A DNA stretch of 39,743 nucleotides, from NCBI GenBank assembly GCA_002256025.1, contig NKIB01009122.1, forward strand, positions 62,001 through 101,743. Reading direction: 5' to 3'. The translations under genes and the position numbers were made by a program. The stretch comes from Asterionella formosa (taxonomy: Eukaryota). Position 1 is the first letter of the stretch. Every line of letters starts with the position of its first letter. Shown in pieces: positions 3,870 through 39,743 of the stretch. The notes below the pieces were generated by a model that saw nothing but the letters and a program-made list of their open reading frames with translations, ran no database searches and was not told the DNA's origin.

Positions 3870-4946
3870 CAGAACTGAATTTATATCTATTCTTTTGTCT
3901 TGGTTTAACCATGGCTTATGTATTACACTACCGGTATCTCGTACCAGTACATACACCGGTAAACATACATACATACTACAGGTAGTCCACTCTGGCAGGG
4001 AGTCGAAGGAAATGGTGCTTACATTATGCCATGTAGTATTACCATACAGTTGCCATATATTTTCCATATTCTCTCATGTCCCGTAACTCCGACTACCGGT
4101 AAATATGTACTGCGAGTACCGGTAATCAAATTGAAAACAGCGACCGCATTCTTTTATTTCTTTGTTTATCGTCCACCTGCCCGGGCTCCCTCGGTGGCAC
4201 TTTGGGAATGAAACTGCCGGTACTCCTTGGATCGGGTTAGCGCCTCCTATTTTTTGGCAGGAGTTTGTCCACATGGAAATTGGTGTCATGTGGCATAACG
4301 GTATGTAGCATCTTCAGGTACCAGGTACTCCAACTTCTCAAAAACGAGGATCGGAACTTATTGTGTGATATGGATCAGTCTTGTTAAGGGAAACCAGATG
4401 TTATACAGTAATCATATCTGAATACATTAATTGAAATCTTTCAAGGGATTCATTCTAATTAAGTCGGTTCCAAGGGTAGAAACAACCGGGATCTCTTGTT
4501 CGTATATATTCATTACGTAGTTTTGAGTCTTCGAATATGCACTCTTACGCGGTAACATGGCAGACTAAGAAGCATTGAATTCGAGGAGGGCTAGGTACAG
4601 ACAGTCTTAGCAGAGAGTCCGCAATCCTTACTCCGACTGGCTTGCTAGTTCGAGCCGAATGGAATCCGAAGTCTCCTTTTGCAAGACCAATTCTCCGCGA
4701 TTGATCTTGTAGACACCTGCTTGGACGATGATTGAGTCTGTTATACAATGAAATAAAGTGTGCTTCGACCGACAAACACTGTGAATAGGACAACGAAAGC
4801 CGTTGTGCTCCCGTTGACGGTTCAAGACTTCTCCGAGACATTTCCAGTGTAACTTGTCACCATTTCATTGCTGAGAAAGTAAAGGCGGTGTTTTATATTT
4901 TCCATATCTCGTTCATCCTGAGATTGTGCTCTGCTTTTCGGATCTG

Positions 4947-6543
4947 ATGCCGCATCCGCCCATGAGAGGCCCCCCTCCGGCCGATTCATACGGACCGCCA
5001 CCAGGTCGCGACATGCGTCCTCAATACCGCTATCAGAACGAGCACTATGGGCATTCACAAGGCCCCCCGCCTCCTCCTGCTCAACGGTACCATCCGAACA
5101 ACGCCATGCGAGTGCCTCCTCCGCACTATCACGAGCAGTTCCAGGGTCCTCCCCCGCCTGGTTATTACCCCCGAGGCGATCCTGGCTATGGAGCACCGTC
5201 TCCTGGGCCATGGAGGGACGAATCGCTTCGCCGTACGCCCTCATATCCACCGCGCTACGAGTACGGGCGTGACATGCCTCCACTTCACGAAGAGCAGCAG
5301 CGCTACCATGCTACTCCGAGAGGGCCACCTCCTGGTCTCTATATGCCATCAATGCAGCATTCGTCACCTAGAGAAGGCCCCCCTCCCTTGAGAATGAATT
5401 CTCGCCAAGGACGGTCAGTTCCTGAACCTCAGTTCAAACGCTCCAAGGACTCGCTTTCAAATTCCAAGGCAACCACTTCCATTTCTACCGATGTCAAGAA
5501 AACTTCGTCCAAGGAATCGAAAGGAAAGAAAAAGGGCGACGCTCTCGATCTTCTTGCCAAGGTGTCATCGGCAATGACGGAAGATGAAGAAAGTGATGGT
5601 GGCACGGAGGCAACAGCAGAGACGAAGCCTCCTGATGCAGGACGTGAATCGACGCAACAGACGACTACCCCACCTCGTCACCATATTTCGACGCCTCCCA
5701 AGTCATCGCACGTGTACACTGCAAAGATGGGATATGCTCCGGAACACAATGCGGCTCGTCAGATTACTCCCAATACAGACCAACGCCGTCGTCCACCTGC
5801 TCACTACCACGACCCTTATGCCAGACACACGCCCCGTGACAATTACGGGCCCGCCCGTGACTTTTATCCACCTCCACCCTACTACCCACGCAGTCACTCT
5901 CCGCCGGCGGTCATTTCACAGCGAAACTCATTCGAGGATGGTATGGGAATGGGACAAGAGGTTGTGTACTACGAAGGAGGGTCTGCGGATATGATGGACA
6001 TTGACCATCCACCACCACATCAAGGGCATTATGAGCGATACCCTGTGCGACCTGAACACTACCCCCCACACCTTCCGCCACCGCCATTGCCGTACACGTT
6101 TGTACAGCAACCCCGGATGGAAAATAAGACCATTCTTCGCAAGAAGTTTTCTTGGAAGCACTACCCTGAGGTATGCAATATTCTCGTTCTAGGCGAATGA
6201 CATTCATGTATTCCCAGATTTGCACAGTCTCACATGTTTGTATCCATTCCAATTACAGCTCGAACGTTTCTTGATTGCGAATCGTGACGAGTATCTTCGT
6301 CATTCAGCCCTCAACTACACAGCGGAACAAAAGCAGTACAATAATTGGCTGACAGAACGCCTTTTAGAATTGGCCGCCCGTCATCACTACATTTTCGACG
6401 CGGAAGAATTTAACTTTGTAGCTGTGAGGGATAGGATCCGGTGCTATTACAAATCCTACGTGCAAACATCACGCAAGCGGGGACATCCACTAACAGCACC
6501 ATCACCGGTAGCCAAGAAGAAGACTGCAGGGGCAGCCGAATAA
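4947..6543 (+). CDS. Pro/His/Tyr-rich protein with a conserved-looking C-terminal globular domain (putative nuclear regulator); exons 4947-6170 and 6259-6543
   Basis: A phase-0 GT..AG intron at 6171-6258 (88 nt) joins LRKKFSWKHYPE to LERFLIANRDEYLRHSALNY...RDRIRCYYKSYVQ. The first in-frame ATG is at 4947. Confidence 0.85.
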
Positions 6544-8840
6544 CTTGGGACAAAAGTTCGCGCCAATTCCCGAAATGTTGTTGCTGCGACTATGAAAAAG
6601 GGTATCCGTAAAGAATAGTTTATGTTTTCATACATGAATACGAGGTCATTATATGCGCTGAATTAAGGTCCAATGATCTATTGCTTGCCTGTGGGAACAT
6701 TTTAGAATGCGTTGCTTGGTTTAGGATAGCGGCGAAGCAACAAAACGAATTCTCAGCTGTGGTGTTCACCAATCACAAGACGTCAGATCTTTCGGCTACA
6801 GTTTTAATGAACCACATTGGATTCAACCACTCTGAAATCATTTATTTTCATGGTGACAAACTCCATTGCTGCGACTGACTGTTTCATCAATACAAGCACA
6901 TTTGCTGTAACTGCTTCATCATTACAGGTGTAGCTGGGTGTGGGGCAATCTTCAACCCCGTTCAAGATGCTGAAACTAGGATTACATTAATGAAAAAAAC
7001 TAGGATTACATTAATGGTTGAATTTTCATGGTACGGCCAGTTCCAGGTAATGCGATCTGAGTTGAAATGCAACCAAAAGATGGTAAGATTGCAATACTGA
7101 AGGCACTCAGAACATTCAGTTAGAAAAAATTTGGTTTGAATCCATGGCATGCACATTTCACTACAGTCAACACGGTTCAATATAATGGTAATGGACTGCT
7201 GCCATGTCCTGTGTAGAATAATTCCAGAGGCCTACAGGCGCTAATCCTTGCTGTAATGAATTTTCTGTACCAATTAACAATAACAGGGTGTGACAGTACC
7301 CAGAGAAGAATTGCCTGGTAATGCCTGCATACCATTCAATTACTGGCATAAATGTAGTTTACACCATGTATGAATCCATGTTTCAGTATGCAGTTGCCTT
7401 CCATAAGCTAGTTTTCCTGATGTCAGAAATGCAATAAACTAAGGTAGGAGAAGTCCATTGTCCCTATCTGACTGTTTAGTGTGATTATCATATTGTCTTA
7501 TTTGACCAAATTGAGTTCCTAACCCAATTCAACCTCATTGTTCCTCACCTTACTTCTCAGATTCTAGTAGATTATTGGAGACATGATGACAAAATTTTCC
7601 ATTCACATGTTATAACTTGCCTTCGTTCTGCTGAATACCCAAGCGATGATTCATCCATTGTGAACCCCTTCTCAAATATTCTTCCAAACATTCCTAACTT
7701 GCCGATGTTAACAATACAACTAAATGTTCTTTCTTAAATAAGTATTTTGCTTGTGCAACAAGTAGTTCCAGCCATAACATGATAAATACCGGAATTTGAA
7801 GAACCGAGAGGATGTTCTAGTTAGGCAAATGCAATGGGGATGGGTACAGGACAGTGAAGCATACAGAGTGGTCATATATTATATTGGGAAGCTAGGGAAA
7901 AGTTTAGTGCTGGTTAAGCAGGCAGGTTGTCTTTGTAAAAAAATTGTGGGATTGGTTCCTGTTTTTCTGAGAAGCAACTGTTGTTGGGTTCGACTTGTCC
8001 CACACTCAGCTCACTTGCTCCTTACTGTCCCTCATGGTCTTGCCAGGTCTGCAAGAAAAGTTGGTTTCCTCCATCACCCCCCCCCCCCTACAAGCTCCAT
8101 AGGTGGTCAGAGTTTCCCCTGACATTGTGGCTAAGATGACCATCTTTTGCAAAAGGTGTTGGGGACTGACCTATGCTAACAAAACTAGGAAAGCACAGCA
8201 GGTTTAGTTACCAGGCAGCACAATGAATACTTGCCTAGAAATAGGGAGGGAAGTAGGAATGGGCTACTATGAACCAGCATATCATTTTATACTAGAGGTA
8301 TAGGTACATTTGTATGACCAATTTGGAAGTAGCACTTTTATGTTGTACAATGATCCTTCAGCAAACTACAAAAGATGAGGGAGCACGCCATGCTTTGATT
8401 ATGTACATATTCATGGATATTTACATATCAATGTTATGAAGTTTGGAGCAGCCTTGTGCACACGACACCCATAAATATTCTTTTAAAACTGTCTGTACTA
8501 CAGCACAGTAACGGGTCTCCGTTAGCTACTAATAATATCTGGTACCTGGTACCTGGTACTCTGAGTACATTGGATACCACTCCGAAGTACCTGGTACCGT
8601 AGCCTTGCCACATGCACATGAACGTGTCATCGAAATACAAAGCACAGCAGTACCGAGTAGCAGGTGTCACCATTATGAGCGACGAAGCTGAAGCCGCGAG
8701 GGTGAACATCTCTAGCTACAGGCCAGCCAGTGCAGAAGTGTGCATGTGGTTACTATCAGGTACCTGGTACCCTGGGTAGCTGATACTCCGAGTATTCTTT
8801 GTATGTACCTGCATGTACTCCGTGCTTCATAGTGGCTGGT

Positions 8841-8868
8841 CAAGCAACAGCAACAACAACAACAATAA
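8841..8868 (+). repeat. Short imperfect (CAA/CAG)n microsatellite upstream of the DUF6824 gene
   Basis: caagcaacagcaacaacaacaacaataa. Confidence 0.6.
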
Positions 8869-9005
8869 TCTCAAACAGCCGGCGCAAATGGCGGTACAAC
8901 ACCTATAACACCCCGTTCCGTTGACGCTATCCCTCGTTAATTTACACTAATACGTTTCTAGAACACTCTCCAATTGCTCTCATCCTCGAGAAAGCAGAAT
9001 ACAGA

Positions 9006-10397
9006 ATGTCAGATAATGAACACAATAGCGATCCAGACGACGGGGCAAAAGAAATCGATGAAGAACCTCACGAAAGTGATGTTTTGTGTGGAAGGGGTGG
9101 CGCTGCGCTTCGTCATCCAGGGAATCAAACATATCGTAGATTGGTCCATCTCAACAAGGGTTTATACATTACTTGTCTGAAGGCTGAGAAACTTAAGATC
9201 AGCAGAAGTATTGTCGCCGCAATTCGAGAGCAAAACGGACGATTTTTGGAACGAGATCCAAAAAAGGGTACTTGGTATGACATTGGGGACAAGAAGGCCA
9301 TGGAGAAGACCTCTCAAGCGTTAAGGGAAGGTCAACCAAAATTACGCCAAAAAATTGTAGAATTTGGAGGCGGGGCTGCAGGAGCAGCGGCCATGTTGGA
9401 GAGTCAATTTCCTGGAGGCCAGCTGTACAACCTTCATCAACACCCCGGACCTGCTTGCAATATGCTTGTTAAGGGTAGTGATCAGATTATAGACCAGATG
9501 GCGCAAGCGCTTGATCTGAATGCGCAAATCGAGAAGCAGCTGCAGAGCCAACAAGAACAATATGAGAGCCAGCAATCACAAGGGCATCAGCATCAACACG
9601 ACGATAGTAATGATGACATGTTTCAACGACTTTCTCTTAGTGAAATTCAAGAGGAACCCTCCTTCCACCAAAACAATTACCCAAATATAACAGCTCGAGG
9701 TTCCATGGTTGCGGCGGATCTCGGAATTGAATCGACGTTTTCACTATTAAGTGACTATAGCAGTTACGGTATGGCGGAATCTCAACTTGCATTGGAAACT
9801 CAGCAGCAGGCATTCACCATGAGCAACACGTTGCCTCAGCAACAGAGTAGTTCCAACCATATGGGACCACCTGAAGATATGTCTCCCGGTGGCGCATCTA
9901 ACCACCAACAGGCAAAACTGGCATTTACGAAATTGGACAGGCGTAAGCATTTTGCAATAATGAAGTATTCCAGACCAGCCTCAGGAAGATCTTCATCTGG
10001 ATCCTCTCTGAATTTAATAAATTCGCAGCAAAGCTTGGGAACAGATGGTATGCCAGATATCCATCTCGTTGAATCAGCTCCCAGTTTGCTTAGCAACACA
10101 AGCAGTGTAGGAAGTGAGAAGGTGGATGCCACTGGTGCTAAAATCCCTGATGTGGCAAATATCTTTGAATCTCGCCGGTCCATGATGAGTGGGTTGTCTA
10201 AAATCAGTGACACCTCTGAAGTCAATTCTATCTTTTCTGATCTCAGCAGGAAGATTGGAAATATATCCACTCGATCTATTGCCATGAGTGAAATTTCAAA
10301 CATGGATGATCATGGTGATATCGATAATTTGAGTGTCGAGGACAGCGAAAAATTGCACTCTGTCGCTAGTCAGCGGATGCCAATGGATTTTGATTAG
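9006..10397 (+). CDS. DUF6824-domain protein with a long Gln/Ser-rich disordered tail
   Basis: N-terminal motifs DVLCGRGG..HPGNQTYR..IVAAIREQNGRFL..WYDIGDKKAMEKTSQALRE are typical of this diatom-expanded family. Single 463-aa ORF. Confidence 0.88.
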   Translation: MSDNEHNSDPDDGAKEIDEEPHESDVLCGRGGAALRHPGNQTYRRLVHLNKGLYITCLKAEKLKISRSIVAAIREQNGRFLERDPKKGTWYDIGDKKAMEKTSQALREGQPKLRQKIVEFGGGAAGAAAMLESQFPGGQLYNLHQHPGPACNMLVKGSDQIIDQMAQALDLNAQIEKQLQSQQEQYESQQSQGHQHQHDDSNDDMFQRLSLSEIQEEPSFHQNNYPNITARGSMVAADLGIESTFSLLSDYSSYGMAESQLALETQQQAFTMSNTLPQQQSSSNHMGPPEDMSPGGASNHQQAKLAFTKLDRRKHFAIMKYSRPASGRSSSGSSLNLINSQQSLGTDGMPDIHLVESAPSLLSNTSSVGSEKVDATGAKIPDVANIFESRRSMMSGLSKISDTSEVNSIFSDLSRKIGNISTRSIAMSEISNMDDHGDIDNLSVEDSEKLHSVASQRMPMDFD

Positions 10398-11150
10398 TGA
10401 GAGAATGATGGAAGGACGACGAACAGGGCGAAAATGGATTTCAACCAGATTTCTTGGAGATATGTCGAGATGAATGCGAGAATTTGTAAACACGCAAAAC
10501 TGTGGAAGATTTGCTTGTAAGTTTATGGTTTAGTTTTTTCTGAAGGATATTAATTTGAGACATGTTCATCTCTGGGTGGTGCGTGGGCAAATAAAACGTA
10601 ACCATAGGGACCATGGGTTGCACCCGGGCAAAAGACCCCACCTGTACTAATCCTCCCGTCCTACTCAGGTGTATTACAAGCAAGCTGAGCGAAGTATCGC
10701 TATATATAGTCTACCGGTATTTTCACCCCCTTCGTCTCGGAGTTTTGTATTTTAGATATTGTATTGCCTTGTTTTATGTATTAGCTATATTATGCAAATT
10801 GTATATAGCATGGATATTATGAAATATGGAGTGCGTATGTAGTTTTACGGAAATATGGCAGGCAGCCAGGAGGCAGCCGATCGTCAAAGACGCCCTTTTC
10901 CCTCCACGTGGTGCTCGAGTGAGTAGTGCAACCTACCCATGTACTGAGTATACCGGTGCTTACGTAGTAAGCGACCAATCGTCCCGTAGTGCGTCAGATA
11001 TTCACTCGGACGACTGCTTTGTCGCCACAAAAAAAAGCCTAGAACAAAGGGGTTCCTCTGCTTCCTTCTATATGTACCGGTACGTATTGGAATACATAAA
11101 ACAATATATGATACGTGGTATTGGCAGTCCCGATTATATGTATGTGACAT

Positions 11151-11299
11151 GTAGGTAACAGGTACCTGGTACCAGGTACCAGGAAGTACCGGTGGTAGTA
11201 TGCTATGTCAAAGAAAACCGGTGTCCTCATCGATAGGATACGTATGGTACCAGGTACCAGGTACCATACCAGGAACCACCAGGTACCGGGTACTCCAGG
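11151..11299. repeat. GGTACCW / TACCGGTA array immediately upstream of tsf (one of about ten such fields in the window)
   Basis: GGTACCT-GGTACCA-GGTACCA at 11161-11181 and (GGTACCA)x3 at 11246-11266. The field ends about 45 bp before the ATG. Confidence 0.85.
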
Positions 11300-11344
11300 C
11301 ATAACAATATCCTCACCTCAAACATCAAAACGAAAGTGCCAACC

Positions 11345-12319
11345 ATGAAGACCACCTGCCTTGTCACACTCATTGTTCTCTCATCAGTTTCGGCATTTAG
11401 CCCTGCTGCTTTCACAAGGAATGCCAGAACCACCACTTTTCTGAATGCTGAGGTCACTACTGCATTGATCAAGGAGCTTCGTGAGACCACCGGCGCGGGT
11501 ATGATGGACTGCAAGAAGGCGCTCATTGCGGTGGATGGCGATTTCGAGCAAGCCTTGGCTGACTTGCGAAAGAAGGGTCTAGCCAAGGCCGATAAAAAGG
11601 CAAGTCGTGTTGCCGCCGAAGGAAAGATCGTCGCCGCCTCTAGTGGAGACAAGGCTGTCTTGGTCGAAGTAAACTGCGAGACGGACTTTGTGGCTAAAGA
11701 TGGCACGTTCTTGCAGTTTGCTGATTCTGTAGCAAAAGCTGCTCTTGAATCTGGAAGTGAAGACTTGGATACAGTCATGGGATCAAATATGGGTTCATCT
11801 ACGGTTGAGGAGGCTCGTCAAGCTATTGTTGCCAAGATTGGAGAGAACATTCAAGTTCGTCGCGTGTCCGGAATGGGAGGTCCTGAATCAACCGTTGGAA
11901 CCTATGTCCACATGGGAAAGATTGGAGTCATGGTTGAATTGCAGGGTGGTACCGAGGAACTTGCCACTGATGTTGCCATGCATGTTGCTGCTATGAACCC
12001 CGCTTATGCAACTCAAGATGATGTCCCGGCCGATGCCATTGAGAAGGAACGTGCTATTCTTATTTCGCAAGTAGAGGACTCTGGTAAGCCAGAAGAGATT
12101 ATCAAGAAGATGATCGATGGACGCATTCGCAAGTACTTGGAGGAAATCTGTTTGGTCAGTCAGACTTACGTCAAGACCAACGACAAGACTGTCGGCAAAC
12201 TGCTTGCAGATGCCGGTGCCAAGATGGTCGGATTCAAGCGTCTTAATGTCGGTGAGGGTATCGAGAAGAAGACGGAAGATTTCGCCGCTGAGGTCGCCAA
12301 GATGGCCAGTGGAAAATAA
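11345..12319 (+). CDS. tsf: Translation elongation factor Ts, nucleus-encoded and plastid-targeted
   Basis: Motifs IKELRETTGAGMMDCKKAL, AAEG, EVNCETDFVAK, KIGENIQVRR and DVAMHVAAMNP. The N-terminus is a signal peptide followed by VSA-FSP (ASAFAP-type cleavage motif) and a transit peptide. Confidence 0.97.
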   Translation: MKTTCLVTLIVLSSVSAFSPAAFTRNARTTTFLNAEVTTALIKELRETTGAGMMDCKKALIAVDGDFEQALADLRKKGLAKADKKASRVAAEGKIVAASSGDKAVLVEVNCETDFVAKDGTFLQFADSVAKAALESGSEDLDTVMGSNMGSSTVEEARQAIVAKIGENIQVRRVSGMGGPESTVGTYVHMGKIGVMVELQGGTEELATDVAMHVAAMNPAYATQDDVPADAIEKERAILISQVEDSGKPEEIIKKMIDGRIRKYLEEICLVSQTYVKTNDKTVGKLLADAGAKMVGFKRLNVGEGIEKKTEDFAAEVAKMASGK

Positions 12320-13696
12320 AAAATGTATGCGCATGCGTAATTTGACTTTATTTTATATCTTGTAACAAGTAATAGTGACGTAGCCGGTCATGTTTGCACT
12401 AGCTTTCGCAATATCTCGATGATTCCACATGTCAATGCATACGCTGGAAATAAATATATTATTCGTTTTATCGTTTTGCTAACTAATACTAAATTCCAAA
12501 GTGGCCTTTTTCACTAATGTTGACATTGATCAGGTTGAAAATCATTATCTATGTTTCGAAACTATGAAACATCTGCCAGTTAGGTTATTTGGTTTTTTCC
12601 TTGTTCGTTCATAATGTTGGAAGTACATAACTTCTGAAGATATTGTTGGAAATAGTAGGTTAGCTCACAAGTTACAAATCAAGGCAAGGGCTCAACGATT
12701 TCTCTTCCTGTCATTGACATCAAAGTGCTGCCTTCCATTCTGTATTTTAGACTGGTTCTACATGTGTCTCTGTTACGATTTCAGATACCGGTACTGGTAT
12801 CCACATATTCCGAATGGGTTAATTAATAGGTATGGACTCTCGGTATTCTACTAATGTTTTCCTGATGCATACGACAAAATGTGGCTGGACATAGCACAGC
12901 ATGTACCGTATACCGGTATTCAACAAAAGAAAAGGAAAAACTTGAATCTATTTTACCACATCCTGCATCATCGGCCACATTACCCTCGCTCTAATACCAG
13001 TAGGTCTACCTGGTACCGTGTGGGTGTACGACACCATTAGAAAAACATGGATAAAATTTCATCGAACAGTGGCGATGTAAATTGGCGCGCGGACTGTGAT
13101 GATCCAATCAAACGAGTTCCTTTTCCCTCCCAATTTTGCCTCATGTTCACCCAGCTCTTCATCAGCGTAAGAGGAAGCCACATTCACATTACATTGCATT
13201 GCTTGGCTTTGTTTGAATAGGAGTTAATGTCATTGAAAGTGTTGCTCTTCATTCAAGATGAGCAGAGTATCTAAGAAAGGAAAAGAGGTAAGATGTTATA
13301 GGCGTCACATGATGTCGAAAACCGAAGAGACGGACGCGAACGAAAAGGAATTGGTGCAAATCAATTTCGTAATGCGGTTCTACGTAGGGGTGGTACTTAA
13401 AACATGTGCCAGCCGTCCCAGCGGGAGGCACTCTGACCGGGAGTGTTCACAACAACCTGAATGCTGGGCCGAGCCTGTCTAACACCCTTTCTTTCCCTAA
13501 AAAGCAGTCGGTTCTCTCCTCGCTCGTCAGCATTTCTTCGACTGGTAGAAACGTTTCGAAATCAAAGTCACCGAAAACTGACCCAACGCTCAGCTTTGTC
13601 CGGACTAGTGGCGATAACGGGCAAGGTCAGAATTGCAAACTCGCGGACGAAGGAGTCCGTTCTCCCGCTAGTTCTAAATCCGTCAATTCAGCCAAG

Positions 13697-19015: not shown

Positions 19016-20789
19016 GATACAACAAGACTTCGCACTACAAGCTGATGATGCGCAGTCTAATAGTGACTCTAGCCAACCAGGATTGTTGCGAATGGGATCT
19101 GCAATTGTTGCGTGCGGTGACGGATGCTGATACAATCGTCGTGATGGCTTTCTTGGTTTGTGAGAGCAGTGTTATTAGTAAATAGTATGGAGTATACTTG
19201 AGTAATATTTGTGAATTTAATGATCATACCGTTAGCTTCGCTCGCGGTCTAACCTAACCTGCACAGGGACATGCATGTACTTTATTCCCGACGAGGCAGA
19301 TTTGCATATTCTGTTACGACTTGATAAAAATTGTACCGGTGCGTATACAAAATGTGAAAACGACAAGAATGCTCAGGCTCAAACGAGGTGTAACTTTGCA
19401 GCGTTCAGTTCTTCGTTTTGCAGTCCTGAGTCAGTACACTATTAAGTATACACAAATTCTGTTCATGGACATAATGAAACCTGAGAAGTATGGTTTTCGG
19501 ATTGCTACATTGCTTCTTTGTGAGCTCACCTGCAAAGTTCTTAGTACAGCATGCCTGACGATGTCAGAGTGTGTCTGTTAGGCTGTTGATGTCGACAGGT
19601 GTCCGAAGACTAGGTAGTCTGAGGAATGTCTAAACGGGAATAGACAGGATTTATATAGCAGAATAATCTGCAGACGAGCGGTGCGAGAAAGATCTTGACC
19701 GGTCATTCCAGGGCAGTACTGGAGCGCGCTAGAGTAGGCGCCATATATTTTAACATGACGATACTATTACCTGATACAGGACATACGCGCAGGTACCGGA
19801 GGCTACTACCGGTACTAGCTGGCACTCTATGATATCGGATTCTTTCCACCTAGACTGATTTCAGTCTAATAGACTGGATTCAGTCTCAGTTTTCAATCCC
19901 TTGCCCCTAGCTCAATTCAATGGATATTTCATTTCTGAAAAGTTAATCTAAATCTACAGAACTGGATGTTTCTGGAGGTATGCATGGCAATAAGCTTTTA
20001 TCAGGGTTTAAAAAATTATAAATACATAAGTAGTCTGCCTGCCAAAAATCTCAAAAATATCTGTGCAGGATGGCGCGAAAACAAAATTTGACAATGGGCA
20101 AAGGTGCCGTCGTTTCATGCCTTTCCAAGTACGTTCACCCATAGCTGTGGGTCCGAAATCATCATGTGAACATCGCAAAAGACCGTAGACTTGAAAGAAT
20201 GACATTTCGGCAGAGGGAGCTCAAGGAAATCAGACGAGGTAAGGATGCAATGGCCATTATGGTCACTGCTCCCGGGACTGTAGATGATGTTGATACGACT
20301 GAGCTGTATGCCCTTGAAAATGACTTCTAGGTCATTTCCGATGGTTTCCAGACACCTTTTACTATAATGAAGGCGATTATTTACTTGAGGAGGCAGCAGA
20401 AGGTGAAGTGATGCCTTCAGAGCTTCTCAAACTTGTCAAGTGTACTAGTAGCTATTGGCGCAGTTCTTGACACTGAGGATATTGCCATCCCAGCTAGATT
20501 TTTTGATATTGGCGTTGATAATGCCCCAGCATCTGAAAATGTTTTTCCACAATGAAATTGCAAACAATTTGTTTGACAATGAGTGAGATATGTCAGGAAG
20601 TCGTGACAGGAGCCAGTTGAAAGGATCAAAGGCAGAGCATCCAATATTTTCATCATTTCCAATTCATCGGAAGTCGACTGCCTTCCAGTTATTTGATTTA
20701 ATCTTTCCTTCGGAGCTCTGGAATGATTCAATTATTTTTATCATTGATCAAGAGGTAGAGGGCAAACCTGTAACCACTCATTTGGATTG

Positions 20790-21350
20790 AAAGAATGGTG
20801 GAATGAGGATGGTGGAGGGGAACGTGTGCGTAGATCATGAATAACAGAAAAAGATGATGACATTTACAGTGGTTTTCTACCACCACTACAATTTTCGGCA
20901 TGCAGTTGACGATCATAATGCAACGAGGCATTCCTCAATTAGTTTGGAGGTGGAATGGGCGACAAAATGGTGGCCAAATAGAATTTTTGCATTCCTCCTT
21001 TCAGTCACGGAAGTAAATGCCATGCTGGCATATTAACACTTCTGCATTGAGAAGGTTGATAGCATGCTCGGTTTTCGCAAGCTTTTGCAGAGGCATTAAT
21101 ATGTAATCATTATTACAAAGAAGAAGACAGAGAATCGCCTAGAAGGTCGTCAAGATTGACTATAAATGCTGAGCACATTGTTTTCCAGTTACCCAGAGGC
21201 AAGAAAATTTTCGGGACAGAGGTTGTGGTTCTGACAGCTCCCACCTCCAAAGTACATGTGCAGACTGGAAAATGATGACTTGGACATGTTGTGTATGGTC
21301 AATGGGTATACTTCGATATGTTGATTGTTGTTTACATCATTCCATTGAAG
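20790..21350 (+). pseudogene. piggyBac-like DDE transposase relic, C-terminal part
   Basis: YHHYNFRHAVDDHNATRHSSISLEVEWATKWWPNRIFAFLLSVTEVNAMLAY* followed by MLGFRKLL and a Cys-containing tail. The frame is broken by stops and frameshifts. Confidence 0.7.
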
Positions 21351-21420
21351 CAGCATTGAGTCCTTCCAGTCCAGACTGATCTGTGTCTGCAGAGTTTTTC
21401 ATGTTGTGACTGACACACAA

Positions 21421-21683
21421 CGACTGGAAGAACCGGAAAGTTGGGCTGTCATTGACACTCTTGATTCAGAACAGGAAATACATGACCAACAGAGCTTTCT
21501 GTTACTTGCAGCAGTTGCCTTATCATGTTGTCTGGCTGATGATTATCATTACTCAAATGAGAATGACAAATCGACTGGAAGAACCGGAAAGTTGGGCTGT
21601 CATTGACACTTTTGATTCAGAACAGGAAATACAGCATGACCAACAGAGCTTTCTGTTACTTGCAGCATTTGCCCTATCATGTT
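21421..21683 (+). repeat. Direct duplication, about 110 bp units with a period of 151 bp
   Basis: CGACTGGAAGAACCGGAAAGTTGGGCTGTCATTGACACT... occurs at 21421 and 21572. Confidence 0.9.
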
Positions 21684-22495
21684 TGGAATCCTACTAGTTC
21701 AGGACAAACTCAAAGCCAGTGCAATCAGCAAAATGGGAGCATCAATGATGACTTGACTGGAATGATCATGATGTCATAAAGCTTCTCCACAAGAATAGGT
21801 TTTATTGTGAATATTGCAAGTCTCTTCAAGCTTTCAATCACCTTCTGGAGCTACATCAAACTTCCATCACAGTTGATGCTATAGTTGATGCTGTTAAATC
21901 CATTGCAAGTTCCAGTTTATTCAGCACAAATCGGCATATTTATCCTAAGTTGATCCTTGCCGTCGGCCTTTATTGGTTTGCAGGCGGAAACATCATTGAC
22001 ATTTGCCATGTCTATGGAGTTTCTTATCCTTCTGTTTATGCAATTGCTCAAAAATTCCTTGATGCTGTGAACTCTTTCCCAGAACTATCAATTAAGTTCC
22101 CAGCAACAAACAAAGAGAACCAAGCTTCTTGAAAAAAGCTCACAGCAACTATTTTGTGGATGCGTTGGGGTGCAAAAGATGGATACTTACAGTCTATCAC
22201 CAAACCAAGAAAAATGGATTGTGGTGGTGATAGCTTCCCTCAAGCATATTTGTCTGGGCATTATATGTCATATGGATTAAACGTCCAAGCTGTTTGTGAC
22301 AGTAATTGTTGTTTCCTAGTATACTTCGGTGTCGTGGCACCAGGAAAATGTCCATATCAGAAGGCATTTGGAAGGCCACAGCTTTTTCAGATTATATCCA
22401 ACCTGGATCCAGGACCATATATTGGAGGTGATGTCGTTGCTGCTTAATACACATTGACTGATCAAGTGGTCCTCTGTCCCTTTGCTGGCTGGAAG

Positions 22496-22807
22496 TCAAA
22501 GAGAATCAACAAACAAAGATCCATATTACTATTTTCTTTTGCAACTATGCATTTGCATTGAGATGACGTTTGGGTTGCTCACCAACAAATGAAGGATCCT
22601 GAGGACATCCTTGTCCTTCATTCTGAAAAAACCAGTTGTTATTCTTTGTTGAGATTCAAAGAGATTCAACAAACAAAGATGCAAACAACTATTTTCTTTC
22701 GCAACTACATATTTGCATTGAGATGACATTTGGGTTGCTCACCAATAAATGGAGGACCCTAAGGACATCCTTGTCCATAACCCTGCAGAAATCAGTTGTT
22801 ATTCTTT
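22496..22807 (+). repeat. Tandem duplication with a period of 160 bp, covering the Harbinger catalytic Glu region
   Basis: TCAAAGAGA(A/T)TCAACAAACAAAGAT...ATTTGCATTGAGATGAC(G/A)TTTGGGTTGCTCACCAA...CAGTTGTTATTCTTT occurs twice. Confidence 0.9.
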
Positions 22808-23350
22808 CTGCTTTTGCCTGCTTACACAATTTCGAATACTCATGGATGTTGATAAAAAGAAGGAACTTGTTAATGGTTTTGAATTTCTGACCAAGTTGGA
22901 GTGCATTTGTTGATGCAATGCCCAATTCTCCTCTTGGGTGGGCTTATCATCCAACTGTCAGGAAATTGGATGTATTAGAAGGTACTTCACAAATTCGGCA
23001 AATTTATTCTTGATGTTGTCACCAACAATGGGGTTAAGGCAGTCTCCAGCTAATGTGTTGCACCAACAATGTGAACTGACTGAAATAGGATTAATGTAGC
23101 ATACAAACAAGAAGTGGAAGAAATTTGATTCCAAGGTAATAACAACTAAAAATAGAATTATAATAGAACCTTCCTTTTTATTGAAACAGGTCTTATAATG
23201 AGCAGCCATTTAGAAATTCCATAACCTCCTACAATTGTTCACTATCCGCAACTTGCTGGTACATTTTACCAGCACCTCCACAGTGAATACTACCAACCCG
23301 GCATGTTGCTTCCCGGCCTCTGCCTCATCATTTAGTGCCACAGAAATATT

Positions 23351-23412
23351 GGAGGGGGGGGGNNNNNNNNNNCCCCACCACCACCCCCCCCCCCCCCCCC
23401 CCCCGCCCCCCG

Positions 23413-23458
<46 letters not shown>

Positions 23459-23478
23459 CCCCCCCCCCCCCCCCCCCC
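23351..23478. other. Assembly gap (10 N) flanked by poly-G and poly-C; low-quality sequence
   Basis: The N run at 23363-23372 is followed by about 105 nt of near-pure C. Confidence 0.9.
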
Positions 23479-23518
23479 AGATAGGTGAAGAATGTACCAA
23501 AGAAGAAAAAAGTAGTCA

Positions 23519-24298: not shown

Positions 24299-25973
24299 TA
24301 TGGTCTAGCGTATCGTCGTGCCGGTTCGAAGCTATGAGCGATGTTAACCTGCTTACTAAACTAATACCTCAACACTCTGCCTGCTGTCAGATTTGAGAAA
24401 GCGTTTTCTGTCCTTGCGTTGTCGCTTTCGTCATGCTTTGCTTATTCCTCGTTCGGATGGCTGTGACGAGTGTACATCATAGCGGTGGTACCAGTACCCC
24501 GTTGCTTAATTAACTGCCGGTACATATATAATTTGTAAACAAGCAGACAGTAATAAATAAAAAGCTAAATACTCGGAGCTCGGAGTAACATGGAGTAGCC
24601 GTATACCGCGAAGTAACTTCGACACAATTACCGTCTCGTCCGTTTCGTCTTTCTCCATTTGTAATCTGTGTACCGGTAGTAGCTTTGTGGTACTTCGCTG
24701 GAATATATAAAATCAACCCATAGAAAAGCGAGCCAGAAATACTAAGTAGAAGTACCGGTAGCAAAAATGGTTTTTGAATTCGGTGCTAGGTAAACTTGTG
24801 CCTTTCCCATATCCGGAATCAAATTTCGGATCCAGTCTGCGGCAGTCGAGTTGCGCTTTGCTGTGGGAGGGACGTAGGGTGGGTGATATTAGACTATAAA
24901 TTGCGAAAGGCTTGGGGATGCTTTAGACTGATTCTCTGAATCGTTATTCAAAGAATTGTTTTCATCACCCTTGCACTACATCTAAGCCGCGAAATACGCC
25001 ACTTTTCGAAATTTCGTCTACGTACGAGTGATAATTATGTGGTACTTCACATGCATTAATGCCACTTTTCACGTAAAAAAGATTACTTTTAACGGTTTCA
25101 TGTGAAGTTTTCACAAAAAACTTTGAACTCAAGACTAAATTAGTCGATGTTTCAAATAATTCATTTCAAAGTTCAACTAAGTCCTGCTCTTCAGGCTAAT
25201 TCATTTATTACATGCATCTTCCTTTGTGAAAGAATAGTAAGGATATTTGTGGTGTCTTAATTCATGCTACAGTGGTGTCTTAATTCAGCTACAGTTTATG
25301 GTTGTGCACTTCACGTAAATAATATTTACTATTAAACTGAACAAGATTACTTGTCGTGGTTTCATGTGATGGCTCACAATTGTAAGGTTATTTCCAAAGC
25401 AGGAATAGTTGATGTTACAACTAAATATTTTAAAAGTTCAAGATAGATTTTTTAGAGGATAAATCATTGCGAAAGACAACTTCACTACTACGTAATTGTT
25501 TGATTGCCACCTGCCCTTATTTGATTGAGAAAAACAGAGCGAAATGGATCTCGAGAAATATCGCGACATGATTCGTGATGAAAGCAACAACCAACCCTAA
25601 TGAGCACAAAACAGGTACGGAAGAATGAATCATTTAATATTGAATTTGAAATGCTAAACTAAATATCTAGACGAATTAGTGTGTTTTATCGACCGCAAAT
25701 CTTCGGAGTGATATCGGGCATGAATTGATGGAGAAAATCGAATCCATGTGGTGGTCAGCAACTGCTGGGTGCATGAAGCATATCAACAATCATCCTTACC
25801 ATCATCGATATTGTCAGCATCCAATATGAATTCTCTTATTCTTTTACATAAACTATATTTCGTATGAATTCTAAAGATACAAAATATATGAATAACACAC
25901 CTGTATTGTGAGCATGTCTGGAATGGCATCGTGATGCTGAGTGTGTTGACCTCAGCTAATGAATAGGTATGAT

Positions 25974-26148
25974 GGTACCAGGTACCGGTTTAGAAGGCCT
26001 ACACAGGGCAATGATACCTACTACCAGTACCAGGTACTAGGTACCAGGTACCTGGTACCTTGAGTCTTTTGACCCTGCACTCAAACATACTAACAAATAG
26101 CTATACTGTATGGTGCCACCAGGTACTCCTGGCTGGTAGGAACCAGGT
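25974..26148. repeat. TACCWGG array not adjacent to an intact gene
   Basis: TACCAGTACCAGGTACTAGGTACCAGGTACCTGGTACC at 26022-26059, plus GGTACCAGGTACCGG near 25974. Confidence 0.8.
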
Positions 26149-28518
26149 TGTCGTTACAAGTGTGAGACTGTTGGTTTGCCCTACCAGTATTTCCGTCTTC
26201 CCCTTCTTGTTACAATAGGAATTATGCCGTTCGTACTGTGAAACTGTACTCATTTCTACGTGCGTACTGTGGAACTGTAGGTTGCTTTGCCATACCAGCA
26301 TTCCCGTATTCCCCTTGTTACAATAGAATATGGCGTTCGTCTGTGAATATATTAAGATTAACCATTGGCTGTGTCCTCTCCTTCTTGCCATATTTGTTTT
26401 AGGTCACACTTGTAGCATCAGAATTTTTCCCGACGAAGTAAGACTGCGCCGATTGTAGGTTCTGTTGGTACAAAGATGAAGTCATGGCGGCTGCGCCAGG
26501 ATTTTTGACCCCCTCTGAATTCACAAAGACAACATTTTACCACCACTGTGCACAATACATTTTCAACATGGGGACGAACCTTAAAACCAGCATCCCCCTT
26601 CTAGCTTTTCAGCACCTCACCACCATTAACAAATCCTTCAACAGCCAAGAACTCACATATTGTTTGTTACAACAACAGAAGGTGGAATGATGCAACATTG
26701 AGATCGTAAGCAATCGATGCTTTTTAGGTAAGATTTATTTGCTTACTATTTTTGCTATCATATCACAAGAAAGCGCAGGATAACTCATACTGATATGCTG
26801 TTGTTTTCAAAATTCATTTGACATTTGAACATGCCATTTCAGAAAAGGAGCGTTCTTTGGAAAGCACGAGTGATAGAGGGTGAAATGATACAAAATGGAG
26901 ACCCGCAATAGAGGCCTTTAGGTAAGCTCAATCTTCAGTTTTTGTCATTGTATCAGCAAAGCGAGCGATAAATCACATGGTTCTGTTATTGTTCTTGTCT
27001 TCATTTATTTTACATGTTATCCGTCCATTTCACAACAGGAGCATTCTTTTGAACGCATCAGTGAGTTGTGGTGCTGCTAGAACTTAATAGTCGCGTTGTC
27101 GCTATAATAATATCTCAGCTGCGACTCCTTCGATTCGCGTCGCGTGGTTTGTATCATCCGGTGCTCGCCTGATATACTAACTCCATCGCGTCCGTCCTTG
27201 TCCGTAATATCAAGTACTATGTAGTCAATGAGGTTACCGACTTAGTTAGTATGATGATGCTCGTGCCTGTTAGCTAATATTCTGGTGACGCATCGTATCT
27301 GGTAGCAGGGTTGGGCGGGGTACCAGCAAGTTGCCGTCATTTTCCATGACTGGCCAGCACATGGCAACTGTCAGATGTATATGACTAGTCTACCTATTAC
27401 GTGAACATGTAAAATACTACAAAGGCTTAAAATTTTAATGCTTTCGAGATTGGCACACAATCACTTTTGCTATTAATATGATTCTTTGGCAGGTATGTAT
27501 AGCAAAATGTTTTTGATTTGGCAGATAAAGTAAACTTGCTTTCCTTGAATAAAGCAATGACAAAGTTTACTTGGTGTTTATCTGTCAAATTAAAACATTT
27601 TGCTATATCTGCCAAAATGGGCGTGCATCGCAATACCAAATTAATTTGTGAAAAATAATTTTATCACAAATATTCCTTCGTGATTTGATGTAAAAAATTG
27701 CCGCTGCGCTCTGATAATCGAATTATTTTAAATTACTTATCTGACATTAAAAAAGAATTTAACTATAATTTACAACAATTAAATTTTCACAGCAATGCAT
27801 CATCCCATTTTTTATGCCTCCTCTTATTCATTTTAATCATAGTAAAAATATCATTGATTTTGAGTTGCATAATTTCGCCTTCATCGGTCACTGACCATAG
27901 TGGCTTTAATCAGATCAAATATGAATACAGCTTGTGCCGCTGGTAGATTGATTATAAAATGAAATCTAAATCTGTGTCTTGTGTGATAAGAGAGTTGTCA
28001 TGAACAAAAGGCAAGGCATAAATGAAACAACAATCAACATCATACCAAGAAAAGCGCCAGCAAAACAACCTTGACTACGACCTCCAATTCTTCTATGAAT
28101 CTTGAATTTTCTTTCGTGAGAAGCTGTAATTATAAAAGGAGAAATAGGTGTCAAAAGTAGAAGATCAGAAAAAGTTACAATCACATCAAATTTATCATGT
28201 AGAGGCAACCTTCATCATTGCGGTTTTCCTTGATTTCGCTATGATTTTACAATTATGTGGCGCAAGAATGATGATGATGATACTAGAGTACCAGTCTATA
28301 ATGAATTAATTAAATATGGGCGCGGTCAATTGTGCTCAATTCCTAATAACATGTACCAGACTCGTGTAAAACGAACAAGCAAAAACTGCTGGCGCGGTCT
28401 GCAGTGCTGTATGAGCGTACCATGAGGTCCTCCAATTTTACCACCCTTCAAATACCAGGAATAAATAGTTACATAAGGAAAAAAAGTAAGGCTGGATTCA
28501 TGCTTTGGGTACCAGGTA

Positions 28519-29319
28519 CTCCCTCTGTCCAATGACAATTGCATCGATAATACAAATTTAGCCGGGGCCATTTTGACTAATACGATTTTCTCCGACTCAA
28601 TTGCCCTATTGTGCGGCTTGCTCTAAGTAACAGAATCATATATACATTATAAATAGAAAGATTAAAATTGAGAACTACGTTTCAAAAAACGTTTTTGGCT
28701 TTTTCGATTTTCACTTACAGCTATCTCGAGCAAAATGCAGATGCATGAGGACCCATTTTTCTTCGAACCATCTATTCTCAACATACGTACAAAGTTCGAT
28801 ATAACAGTAGAACAACGGCAACTTGCGTTCAATTATGGAATGCACAACCCGGAAAGTGGCGATGATGGGAAGGAAGAAAACGACGACGGTATGCTCGTTT
28901 TGATGATTGTAACCGTTAAACATCTGGCAGTATGGTCCATGTAGGTGCAATAACCGTAGAAAGTATACCGAACGACAATTATTCTATTCACATTATAATT
29001 ATGTTAGTGGCTTGTTGTATTCGGTTTCCCGCAAATTTTTGGCCGGCCGATGTGAAACAGCATTTGGCGATATGTGCATGTATGCAATGGATATGCGTAT
29101 GTTAAATTGGTTTCGATTAATTTATTTATATGCCAATAATTTAATTACAGAAACCGATTATATGTTCACGGCTATGTAACTCATAAAAAACGCATTTTTC
29201 CGAGTAAGCCGACCCTCACGTAGAAAGTTGGTATGTTGGCTACGTAATCCTTCATATGTGAACAGTGAAGACACTAGTGGTGCCGGAGAATCGATGCAAC
29301 TGTAATTGGACAGAGGGAG
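28519..29319. mobile_element. Intact Stowaway/Tc1-mariner-type MITE, 801 bp, with 30-bp TIRs and a TA target-site duplication
   Basis: Left TIR CTCCCTCTGTCCAATGACAATTGCATCGAT; right TIR (reverse complement) CTCCCTCTGTCCAATTACAGTTGCATCGAT (28/30). TA lies at 28517-28518 and 29320-29321. Confidence 0.92.
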
Positions 29320-29617
29320 TACCAGGTAACGTAGGTAGCCTTCGCAAGCGCTACAAGGTAAATTATTATTTGGCTGAGATACTGCGATTCTTTTGTCTAT
29401 ACAAATTGCCAAAATGTAGTTGTTGTGATCATCTGGAGCATCCTGCGCGCATCATGTCGTCTCAGTCTTGACCATGACGAAAATAGCTGAAATTTCTACG
29501 AACATTGAGAACGACGCTTTCCTATTTGGTACATATATCAAGCACAACAAATACAATACAACCGTAAAAGAATTATTGCAATAACATTGATATTGACAAC
29601 GAAATCTCCGATGGCAC

Positions 29618-29777
29618 TTTTTTTCTACATAATCTATAGCTGCTCAATTCAAAACGACGCTGTTGCGAACAGATTTGACAATTTCGCAGTAGCTGGCTGA
29701 GCAATGATTTTTTCTACATAATCAATAGCTGCTCAATTCAAAACAGATTTGACATTTTCGCACTAGCTGAGCAATGA
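29618..29777 (+). repeat. Tandem duplication (about 90 bp and 70 bp copies)
   Basis: TTTTTCTACATAATC(T/A)ATAGCTGCTCAATTCAAAAC...AGATTTGACA(A/T)TTTCGCA...GCTGAGCAATGA occurs twice; the second copy has internal deletions. Confidence 0.85.
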
Positions 29778-30693
29778 ATAAGACAACAACTATAACAATA
29801 ACATGATAAGTTGAAGCAAATGATGTAAAATAGTAGTTATTTATCAAAGGAGAATTGATTGATTGTACCACCGGCAATTTGTCTATTCGTCGATGCAGGT
29901 ATCGGGGCCCACAAATGCATGTGCTGTTCTTTGGCAGTCGATATCAAGGAAAAATGTGATAGGGAAAAAATAATAATTGAATCGAAATTTGGGACTCTTT
30001 ATTTAATTATGTGGTGAGACCAGCATAATATTGCTGTGAGGTGACATAATTTCGCCATAATACCGTTATGAGGGCTAGTTGGTAAAAAAATATTGTTGCG
30101 AACTCACATAATTATTTGATAAGTAGAATAAATTTTATTTTAGAACACATATAAATTTTGGTTTGACCCAAATAAATTCCAAAAAAGTAGCATAAATACG
30201 TCACTTTAGACATAAATTCGAAAAGTTGCCGTAAAAATGTATAGCCCTTTTCATCAGGAGAAAAAGTATCATCCAACAATTTATCTTAAGTTTAATGGAA
30301 AGTAACAATAAGCTTTTCAAATTTAGCCTCAAAGAGAGACTGAAATCAGCCTAATGAGCCGGAAAGACCTGATATAGTTTGGTAACAACCTTGGTAGGTT
30401 CTGATTGCTATCGTCCATTAAACTGCAATGTTCCCATATAATCACAGGAAATCGAAATACCAACCCAATTATTTGTGTCTAAATTCTAGGCTAGTAGAGG
30501 TGACTATAGAAGTGATTTTTGTGTTGTTGCTCCATCACAACCCAAGCTGAGTCTGCAGCCACCTGTTAATTTTCGAATTGACAGGGGTTTTGTCCATCTG
30601 CCTTACCTACACGTGCTGGAAAAGCGAGAATATTACAGTTTGTAAAGCTAACTAGTGAAAACGTTATCCAAGTTGTTTGCAATTGACAACATT

Positions 30694-31614: not shown

Positions 31615-32247
31615 CTGTGACTCGGAGTTGACGTAGCGGGAATCATGCAACGCCAAGTTTTGAGGAGATGATTAAATAGTCGTTGAAGTGCAGCTACATA
31701 CCCGGTTGTCTAGAATAGTATTATCGGAGCACCAACATATAAATCATAGAAGTAAAGCAGCAGCAAGATTCACGTGAAGGAACTGTCACAACTCGCACAG
31801 CCACCCGTGTGACGGTGTCATCAGTGATTCATTTTATGTACAGGTGCTGTATCTGTGAAGAACCCTAACAATTGTACCTACCTTGCGCGTTAATAGAAGA
31901 CAATCATTTATCTCCAGTTGGAGCTCAGTCATGTACCCGGTATGTACCCGTAGTGGAACGTGGGGGGGGTACCAGGTACCTGGCTATAAGCAAGTGGAAA
32001 AAAAGAAGAGCAACCGGTTTACCGGTATTTGAAACGCTAGTATTCCTATTACCCCAGTACCTGATATCTACCTACATATTCAAAAATGTAATGATAGTCT
32101 ACCGGTAGCTACCTGGTACCTGGTACCATACGCAGGTATCGTCCGAGACATGACATCTCCATTCACAACAATTGCAAGAATGCAAGAATGCATCCTTGCT
32201 GATCGTACCGATATTACTCTGCCTGATTATTCAAACTCCTCCGTATA

Positions 32248-33634: not shown

Positions 33635-34326
33635 TTATTCTTTGATTGGAGGAGGGGGCACTTTGGATGCGTCAATTGGACTTAACAAGGTGTTGACCCA
33701 GTTTCCAATCGAGAAACCACTTGGTCTGGTCCCAGCTTTGGTTGCCACTTCCACAGGATCGTCTGGGTAAACTTTAAGATTGAAACCAAATTCAAACTCC
33801 TGTTCAAATCCTTTCAACTTGGGATAAGTTCTCACAATAGCCACCTTGAGCGCTTCATCATTAGCAAAGATGGCATCAGGCACTTGCGCTCCTCTAGGAA
33901 CAGCAATAGCACCACAGGGAAACCAAGACCCGTCATCGGATCCAAACTGTCGTACGAAAATGTTATATTCTTGACCCCCTGTAGCAGAAATTTCATCATA
34001 CTTTTTTGATTGCTTCTCTCGTTCCATTTGAGCGGGTGTCTTTTCACGAGGCTTCTCTTCCTCCTTGGCAGCTCCAAACCCCTTGGACATGGACATTCTG
34101 AATTTTTGGGAAGAAAAAATACAAGTATGCTTGGCAGGTGAGACCAAGGTCCCAAACGAGAAACACAACAAACATACCTTCCAGACTCCCACGTAGGCAA
34201 GTAGTAGCGTACTAACCTTACGATTGAATTGGATTGAACAACTGAACGTTGGCCGACGGAAAAGGCTGATGTCATGCCAACGCAAGCGCTACCAGCTAGA
34301 ACAGCGGCAATGGAATAAATTTGCAT
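33635..34326 (-). CDS. HHL1-like plastid protein; exons 34326-34217 and 34097-33635
   Basis: Intron 34216-34098 (GTTAGT...TTCAG, 119 nt) joins the signal peptide + TSA-F presequence to SKGFG..EYNIFVR..WFPCGAIAVPR..AIVRTYPKLK..EFGFNLK. This matches cyanobacterial/plant HHL1-like proteins as recalled. Confidence 0.78.
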
Positions 34327-35093
34327 TGTCGTCGGCGGGTCGATTGTTAATTTAATGATAAATTAATGAGGGAAACGAAGTAACTGGCTGGGTCTTGGTG
34401 ATCAATTATTAGCTTAGGAAGAACCAGCTACGAGAAACCGTCTCATGTGGTCTGATGATGGTGTATGTGAGAAAGGATGTCACGGAATGAGCTAGCAAAC
34501 AAAGGTGGCATGCATCAGACGAGGCAGGTAGGTGGTCAAGCCGCGAGGTAACCACTACCTGGTACCAGCAGTGGCTGTGCGTATCTCGCAACAAATTCCA
34601 ACCGCGGAGACTAACGGTGATACTGTGAACGATCGGACATTTCACACCGATTGGTATTCTTTGTATGTATCCTCCCTCTATCGTGTATGACATGTGGTGC
34701 ATGATACGTACATGCCCGGTGTACCACCATCGTATACCGGTTACTGCACTCTACGAGGTCTACGAGGGACTAGGGAATGGTTCCTGGTACAGTATCAGGT
34801 ACCGGTACCGGTACAATGTACCCTGCTACCTGGTCCCCTCGGAGTACCTATACCTGGTACCTGGTACCACAGGTAGACAACGGTGCCTGGTACCTGGTCC
34901 CTCCATGTTCTATGATGAGCCGATGCATGTAGCGATGATAGGAGTACTGGTTCCGGTGGTTTGATTTTGACGCACTCCGCCAGAGTTGGGTCGTCGGCAA
35001 TTGAAATAATGATCCTTTCATTCTTGCCGTTGCTCTCTCATCACAACTCTTTAATGTTCTCCTAAAAATAATTCTCCATGAACGAGAGTGACC

Positions 35094-39697: not shown

Positions 39698-39743
39698 ACA
39701 AAGTAACGTGCTATAATTCTTTTTGTCCTCGTAGGCACTAGTA

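Follow-up and report, generated by a model that had tools for sequence, protein, structure and literature searches.

Palindromic words before genes of the diatom Asterionella formosa as probable stacked excision footprints of TA-targeting transposons

Introduction

In contig NKIB01009122.1 of the diatom Asterionella formosa (assembly GCA_002256025.1, positions 62,001 to 101,743), short palindromes that begin and end with TA stand in groups before the genes. Why should the same few words be repeated before one gene after another? A preliminary description of this stretch of 39,743 nucleotides (hereafter the window) suggested that the words are scars of TA-targeting transposons, stacked by repeated visits to the same sites. 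Here, we counted the words, searched for elements whose ends could have left them, and compared them with those of a second diatom. Our results indicate that the words are very likely stacked excision footprints of Tc1/mariner/pogo elements, with some later slippage, and that the source elements were probably pogo-like.

Data and definitions

The window is nuclear diatom DNA: nearly all named matches of its EF-Ts protein belong to diatoms, DUF6824 and HHL1-like genes are present, and the metagenome runs that contain it are mostly freshwater. Two exact units were defined: TACC(A/T)GGTA is called the CCWGG unit, and TACCGGTA is called the CCGG unit. Eleven gene models (about 14.7 kb) were set by hand from the open reading frame (ORF) list and Pfam, and their start codons are approximate. 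A scan of metagenome contigs for chains of units gave at least 126 stretches, and 123 loci were kept (L-numbered below). In place of a genome-wide count, the comparison set consisted of the window and 290 kb of the second diatom, namely 47 of the 123 loci, which were grouped by contig series and word content, with three duplicates dropped. That these 47 loci come from one species is an assumption. One protein of L044 has its closest named match in Seminavis robusta (77%), and the second diatom is therefore a raphid pennate. Its DNA shows no similarity to the window besides the chains. It should be noted that its loci were picked for holding a chain, so that its unit counts are inflated, while orientation and gene side are unaffected.

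Enrichment and position of the units

There are 23 CCWGG units and 15 CCGG units in the window, about one putative scar per kb, and not one of these 38 falls into coding DNA; the isolated instances inside coding sequences mentioned earlier thus do not hold for exact units. At most 0.95 CCWGG and 1.5 CCGG units were expected in the non-coding DNA by order-1 to order-3 Markov simulations, and the highest counts in 200 order-3 simulations were 4 and 6, respectively. Among 27,785 classes of TA-x-TA words (x = 3-8 bases), only the CCGG and CCWGG classes exceeded the Bonferroni threshold in the window. The general rule first given for the units (TA + X + 0-2 nt + reverse complement of X + TA) proved too broad, covering 90 words with these two enriched classes and others that occur once or twice. 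In addition, the one-base variants TA-TCAGG-TA and TA-CCTGA-TA were found five times in the non-coding DNA of the window against 0.33 expected (for example, 8754, 19768, 32058, 34793, and 36420); they could have lost the outer C by decay, or be scars from copies with one altered end.

The units lie before genes. When the bases nearest a start were compared with those nearest a stop, each within 1 kb, 27 units fell into 6415 bp upstream and 2 into 6390 bp downstream (P = 1.6e-6), with a similar TA density. All of the ten genes that start in the window have 1-6 units at 90-1020 bp upstream, as had been claimed for essentially every gene. The two convergent gaps, described as free of clusters, are indeed empty, but with only about 195 and 178 bp they are weak evidence alone, and the pooled test carries this claim. 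Furthermore, the 23 longest loci of the second diatom, for which 101 ORFs of at least 200 codons served as gene models, had 213 units upstream (62,160 bp), 35 downstream (42,274 bp), and 6 within ORFs (128,274 bp).

The putative scar fields are as follows.
3929..4327: field before the gene at 4947; three CCGG units and one CCWGG unit (3929, 4094, 4117, 4319)
8536..8795: field before the DUF6824 gene (9006); a CCWGG chain and CTC..GAG-type words (units 8543, 8550, 8588, 8761)
10712..11300: field before tsf (ATG at 11345); two CCGG units and two CCWGG chains (units 10712, 11075-11255)
12786..13020: field before the H15/WSD gene (units 12786, 12911, 13007)
19790..19815: lone CCGG unit (19807) with partial neighbours, before the Duc1 (DUF1769) gene
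24487..24760: field before the DUF179 gene (units 24671, 24753)
25970..26060: dense chain in a high-copy repeat region (about 24.6-30.5 kb, not CpG-depleted)
31934..32130: field in the divergent promoter of the START-like and adenylate kinase genes (units 31970-32117)
34547..34900: field in the divergent promoter of the HHL1-like and steroid 5-alpha reductase genes (units 34556-34858)

Eight of these regions had been listed in the preliminary description, and exact units were found at about the given places in all of them, although the supposed cluster at 19790-19820 has one exact unit only. The list was incomplete, missing the cluster at 25970-26060, the units at 28510 and 29320 on either side of a MITE (miniature inverted-repeat transposable element), and the single units at 2075 and 3118. 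The presence of the DUF6824 and HHL1-like genes is based on Pfam. The number and spacing of the units vary promoter by promoter.

Four CpG-depleted tracts, which look like decayed repeats (20000-23200, 750-2000, 6600-8450, and 36000-38100; 8,404 bp in all, CpG observed/expected ratio 0.30-0.39), contain no unit. Meanwhile, unit-bearing regions, among them the high-copy repeat at 24.9-30.3 kb, have ratios of 0.76-1.26. The CCWGG unit has no CpG, and therefore its lack in the depleted tracts is not due to CpG decay; we infer that units form in unmethylated DNA. An origin of CCWGG from deaminated CCCGG or CCGGG was ruled out, as there are 23 copies against 2, and the CpG-bearing CCGG is still common. 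However, words with CCAG or CTGG may be deaminated CCGG and not footprints in their own right.

Element ends that spell the cores

The following element ends and MITEs were found in the window.
27323..27344, plus strand: CCAG-start element end right after a TA; candidate source of CCWGG scars
3018..3039, minus strand: second CCAG-family end, TA-bounded, followed by a decayed unit
39598..39743, plus strand: CCG-start end, after a TA, of an element with very high copy number; candidate for the source of CCGG scars
28519..29319: Stowaway-like MITE of 801 bp with CTCC ends; flanked both left and right by TA and a CCWGG unit
3127..3869: MITE related to the 801-bp one and likewise Stowaway-like; its left end touches the unit at 3118, and its right end has decayed
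36483..37193, minus strand: decayed copy of the 801-bp MITE, about 67% identity

The preliminary description had made the footprint origin depend on a TA-targeting element with CC..GG-type ends, and TA-flanked CCAG and CCG ends are present in the window. The CCAG family was met as near-complete MITEs of 100-140 bp, whose ends resemble CC(A/T)G, in L021, L065, and L125. The end at 27323 has 2 mismatches in 22 positions to the end of the complete MITE in L125, and the end at 3039 has 3; a match to this inverted repeat with 3 or fewer mismatches appeared in none of 300 shuffles. Furthermore, the MITE of L125 carries CCAG, CCTGG, and CCGG units at one TA, and the corresponding position in L021 and L065 is a plain TA. 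It should be noted that L021, L065, L125, and L099 (see below) come from other waters and may represent another species. In one contig of each of runs X1, X5, and X6, the 27323 end adjoins 24 bases that look like a chain; such a short side is a weak item, and these contigs may be another copy of the CCAG element beside a chain.

The CCG end has a very high depth in all four runs compared. The last 148 bp of the window are identical to L040:3687-3834 from the TA onward, and the flank differs. In the same locus, L040:363-3485 (minus strand) is an open frame of 1040 codons without a Pfam hit, and its C-terminal part resembles DDE_3-bearing Atlas clusters (0.92; the family is on 43% of members). 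Judged from its sequence, it is apparently an intact Tc1/mariner-clan transposase beside the stretch identical to the end of the window, and it is not tied to the CCAG or CCG ends.

The 801-bp MITE occupies the middle TA of a two-unit chain. The available text of PMC1925063 gives Stowaway MITEs a terminal inverted repeat consensus of CTCCCTCCRT, a TA target duplication, and a length below 500 bp. At each end of our element, 9 of the 10 bases match this consensus, with TA on both sides; because 801 bp exceeds the limit, we call it only Stowaway-like. A 9-bp target duplication would be possible in principle and is unneeded given these ends and the TA flanks. For the two Stowaway-like MITEs that are better preserved, three of the four ends lie directly against a CCWGG unit. 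A candidate decayed MITE of 165 bp at 8597-8760 stays unproven, as no second copy was found.

We also considered a 3-kb element in L056 and L029 of the second diatom as a parent. It first seemed TA-flanked, but a DDE_Tnp_4 domain and a 3-bp ACT duplication assign it to Harbinger, and it was rejected as a parent. It is a complete two-ORF PIF/Harbinger element (L056:1849-4902 and L029) beside a scar chain.

Word spectrum of the second diatom

If the cores are footprints, they should consist of a prefix of an element end followed by a reverse-complemented prefix. For the termini CCAG, CTCC, and CCG, which were taken from the window, this predicts 21 of the 27,785 classes. Both enriched classes of the window (2/2) and 12 of the 20 enriched classes of the second diatom are among them. 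The latter include CTC, CTCG, CTCC, CTCGAG, CTCCGAG, and CTCCGGAG, none of which was used in the choice of loci. Among C..G words with 3-5 bases, enrichment in the second diatom was seen for 6 of the 9 predicted classes and for none of the 30 unpredicted ones. In addition, the 4+2 word CCAGGG/CCCTGG, an exact fit to a CCAG end, was found 25 times versus 0.9 expected.

Re-use of sites and target preference

The former target was reconstructed by collapsing each run to one TA. In the window, the collapsed sites were GTAC in 13 of 31 cases versus 61 of 725 nearby TAs (P = 1.3e-6), and in the second diatom in 138 of 372 cases versus 903 of 6766. This excess comes partly from neighbouring scars of other kinds, so that cause and result are inseparable here. 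Units involve 69 of the 1779 non-coding TAs of the window. A CCWGG unit is followed immediately by another in 6 of 23 cases versus about 0.03 per nearby TA (P = 5e-5), and re-use of the same TA, as proposed earlier, is well supported.

Similar habits have been described for Passer, a member of the pogo superfamily. In the available part of PMC9976928, Passer inserts at AAGTACTT and favours transcription start sites and active promoters. A transposase that behaves in this way would account for the bias to promoters as well as for repeated use of scars, and selection would not be needed.

Comparisons between copies and contigs

L099 and L125 represent the same locus in two versions, with identity in 586 of 635 aligned columns. 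The differences between them include a block of 26 bp made up of four whole units and TA-bounded blocks of 6 and 18 bp. The two versions show heavy turnover of words, at a locus whose link to a gene is not established. Meanwhile, a contig of run X6, an independent lake run, is identical to the window over 34566-35133. Several contigs of other runs stop at or near the arrays. A contig with a net gain of 14 bp over 33996-34632 could hold two more units; the place is uncertain, and it was not used.

Mechanism and its weaknesses

We propose the following mechanism. IS630-Tc1-mariner elements and their MITEs would insert and duplicate TA. On excision, a few terminal bases would stay behind as 3' overhangs, and end-joining would seal them between two TAs. 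The 4-base overhangs of a CCAG end could pair around one A:A mismatch and give CC(A/T)GG in either orientation; CCGG could arise from a CCG end that pairs via CG, or from a CCAG end trimmed to 2+2. The preferred targets would be TAs within GTAC, in unmethylated DNA ahead of genes. Every scar would leave GG-TA and TA-CC half-sites that fit this preference and may be hit again, with a chain growing by 6-7 bp per visit, and slippage would later extend some chains. The overhang lengths, the repair route, the feedback, and the transposase family are the parts that this model supplies. As to the first, the available text of PMC6943129 reports that cleavage of the non-transferred strand by Tc1/mariner transposases falls some bases within the element, with 3' overhangs as the result. 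We infer the step from CCAG to CC(A/T)GG by analogy with the CAG end of Sleeping Beauty, which gives C(A/T)G.

The footprint origin that was first proposed is borne out by several observations, namely the enrichment and position of the units, TA-flanked ends that spell the cores, insertions at single TAs in relatives, and the free orientation of units in the second diatom. A number of results weigh against it. First, only 8 perfect events were counted among 94 excisions in rice, and flanking DNA had been lost or gained in most (available text of PMC4423477); therefore, scars as uniform as ours need cleaner repair than in rice. Second, the parts available of PMC9976928 and PMC7913693 give footprints of 0-4 bp for Passer and 2-4 bp for Tc1/mariner, and the CCWGG core has 5. 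Third, strictly TA-bounded indels make up only 5 of the 27 between L099 and L125, and many are less clean. In the species of the window itself, no unit-wise indel could be located; the contigs concerned have 14, 16, and 41 gap letters at unlisted positions. No site was seen in the empty, occupied, and excised states across alleles. Fourth, 8 of the 20 enriched classes of the second diatom are unpredicted, the largest being GAC/GTC (220 vs 39), and the termini CCAG, CCG, and CTCC were not seen on any element there. Fifth, units of the same orientation prevail in the runs of L099 (8:1), L125 (6:0), L084 (3:0), and L130 (8:1). Finally, the partner ends of the two CCAG ends (27323 and 3039) were not found in the window, nor was a transposase matching the CCAG or CCG ends, and we already knew the motif when we recognised the CCAG terminus.

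Further TA-bounded words have the look of insertions. TA-GC-TA was seen 17 times in the window against 5.3 expected, and of the 17 indels between two Copia copies (L070:1-4646 vs 4905-9610), 5 are of TAC or TAGC types. The TA-GC-TA, TA-GTC/GAC-TA, and TAC/TAGC words are possibly scars of elements with G..C ends, for which no source was found in the window, the second diatom, or L070.

Alternative explanations

The units could form a microsatellite, in which a 7-bp unit grows by replication slippage and hairpin-driven template switching flips A to T and so mixes the orientations. We regard this as improbable. The chains are near-perfect palindromes, and neighbouring units have the same orientation in 4 of 6 CCWGG pairs of the window as well as in the runs of L084, L099, L125, and L130, as slippage would have it. 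However, most CCWGG runs are single units (11 of 17 in the window and 261 of 356 in the second diatom). In addition, slippage cannot start a first unit at a plain TA, nor place three different units there, and it does not predict the CTC, CTCGAG, CTCCGAG, and CTCCGGAG series that matches Stowaway ends. The strands of CCWGG are balanced in the window (11:12) and among the at least 488 units of the second diatom (259:229), where neighbour pairs are of the same orientation in 68 cases and opposite in 64 (16 vs 17 outside the scan pattern). The preliminary description had argued from mixed A/T centres; in the window these are 2 mixed pairs against 4 of the same orientation, too few to test alone, and it is the second diatom that upholds the argument. 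Its opinion that slippage fits poorly stands for the origin of the units, while same-orientation runs leave room for slippage as a secondary process.

About as improbable is a lineage-specific transcription-factor site, held in promoters by selection and independent of transposons. It would account for the strong upstream bias and for the one lake contig in which 34566-35133 is unchanged. In addition, according to the available text of PMC3597505, TACCGGTA (motif M94) and TACATGTA (motif M93) are enriched in the promoters of Phytophthora infestans, and PsMyb37 binds TACATGTA in that of PMC11134190. Nevertheless, selection would work by point change and not by inserts of 6-7 bp at TA, and the words also occur within repeats and at MITE ends. 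Their number and spacing differ among promoters, their turnover between L099 and L125 is fast, and a family of cores of variable length matches element ends.

Host repair that inserts short templated palindromic patches at TA-adjacent breaks in open chromatin, with likeness to element ends by chance or by landing in the patches, would fit the lack of an observed excision and the TA-bounded micro-inserts between the L070 Copia copies, but we give it very little credence, since a core that stays the same across unrelated sites must come from a constant donor, which element ends supply, and since CCAGGG/CCCTGG fits the CCAG end exactly.

Relation to known systems and possible function

Like Sleeping Beauty and other Tc1/mariner footprints, the units have a short end-derived core between two TAs with a central A or T; the Sleeping Beauty scars are TACAGTA and TACTGTA (available text of PMC6943129). 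Unlike the canonical footprints, the diatom units have cores of 4-5 bp (CCGG, CCWGG), are chained, and stand before genes at the density given above. In a beta-amylase intron of Triticeae, Stowaway scars keep 2-4 plus 1-2 terminal bases, and a new element sits at the TA of an older scar (PMC1925063); in carrot, there are parallel insertion sites (PMC6881990). Insertion at the TA of an older footprint and hot spots near genes would be shared with Stowaway. However, in what is available of these sources, the cases concern one locus or 1.6% of insertion sites, and many-scar chains before almost every gene are not described. The likeness to Passer lies in the GTAC palindrome as target and the bias to active chromatin, although no Passer-type transposase is linked to the CCAG or CCG ends.

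Among stramenopiles, the oomycete motifs M93, M94, and AM-20 (the PsMyb37 target) are TA-bounded promoter palindromes too, and M94 is the identical 8-mer (PMC3597505 and PMC11134190, in their available text). The oomycete motifs are treated as factor-binding sites, and the string 'transpos' does not occur in the main text of PMC3597505; the diatom words are known from sequence alone. Meanwhile, a contig of an unrelated eukaryote (L043, and also L034) contains 29 TACATGTA words in tandem-like arrays.

The diatom arrays may now act as cis-elements, as was suggested earlier, and only their position speaks for this. Because promoter-seeking insertion of the kind reported for Passer (PMC9976928, available part) explains this position equally well, it lends the role no specific support. 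It is conceivable, though rather unlikely in our opinion, that a feedback of transposon insertion and excision generates much of the sequence on the promoter side of genes in several diatom lineages, that hosts read the scars as regulatory code, and that the oomycete TACCGGTA and TACATGTA are co-opted scars. The oomycete link makes such co-option directly testable.

We found no description of scar fields of this kind in the literature covered, which left out most subscription papers. The mechanism is already known; not found there were fields of this scale, units stacked before almost every gene, and their presence in each of two diatom lineages. Footprints are usually taken as rare local traces, whereas here, in both lineages, they would exceed expectation more than any other non-coding words before genes. 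If this is true, excision is a major source of small promoter insertions, and motif searches in diatoms, and perhaps in oomycetes, would report scars as factor-binding sites. Furthermore, the scars would preserve a history of transposon traffic and of open chromatin that is legible in the sequence itself, and element ends, cut offsets, and end-joining could be read from the spectrum of words.

Other features of the window and contigs

Viral contigs gave no triple-chain match and no match to the CCAG inverted repeat. They gave 10 double-chain matches with 2-4 units each and no fields, and 15 CCG-end matches that diverge directly beyond the pattern. The lone match in a prokaryote genome lies in a bacterial ORF without units and is due to chance.

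The region 24584-30545 consists of nested high-copy repeats; in run X1, its contig depths add up to as much as about 1,700 times the value of single-copy bins. It has a CpG ratio of 0.92, its own scar chain, and intron-like signals near 26.7-27.0 kb; neither an outer inverted repeat nor a coding family was identified in it, and a long inverted repeat at about 24.9-30.3 kb found no support in the alignment. A short stretch at 24631-24690 starts with TA-CCG, has about 150-fold depth and a variant at 24664, and may be another element end, although no second copy was found among the sequences compared. By eye, 21.7-23.1 kb resembles what we take to be a remnant of a Harbinger transposase. Directly after the stop region of the DUF179 gene, 23355-23480 contains a poly-C tract and 10 N, which is probably an assembly join.

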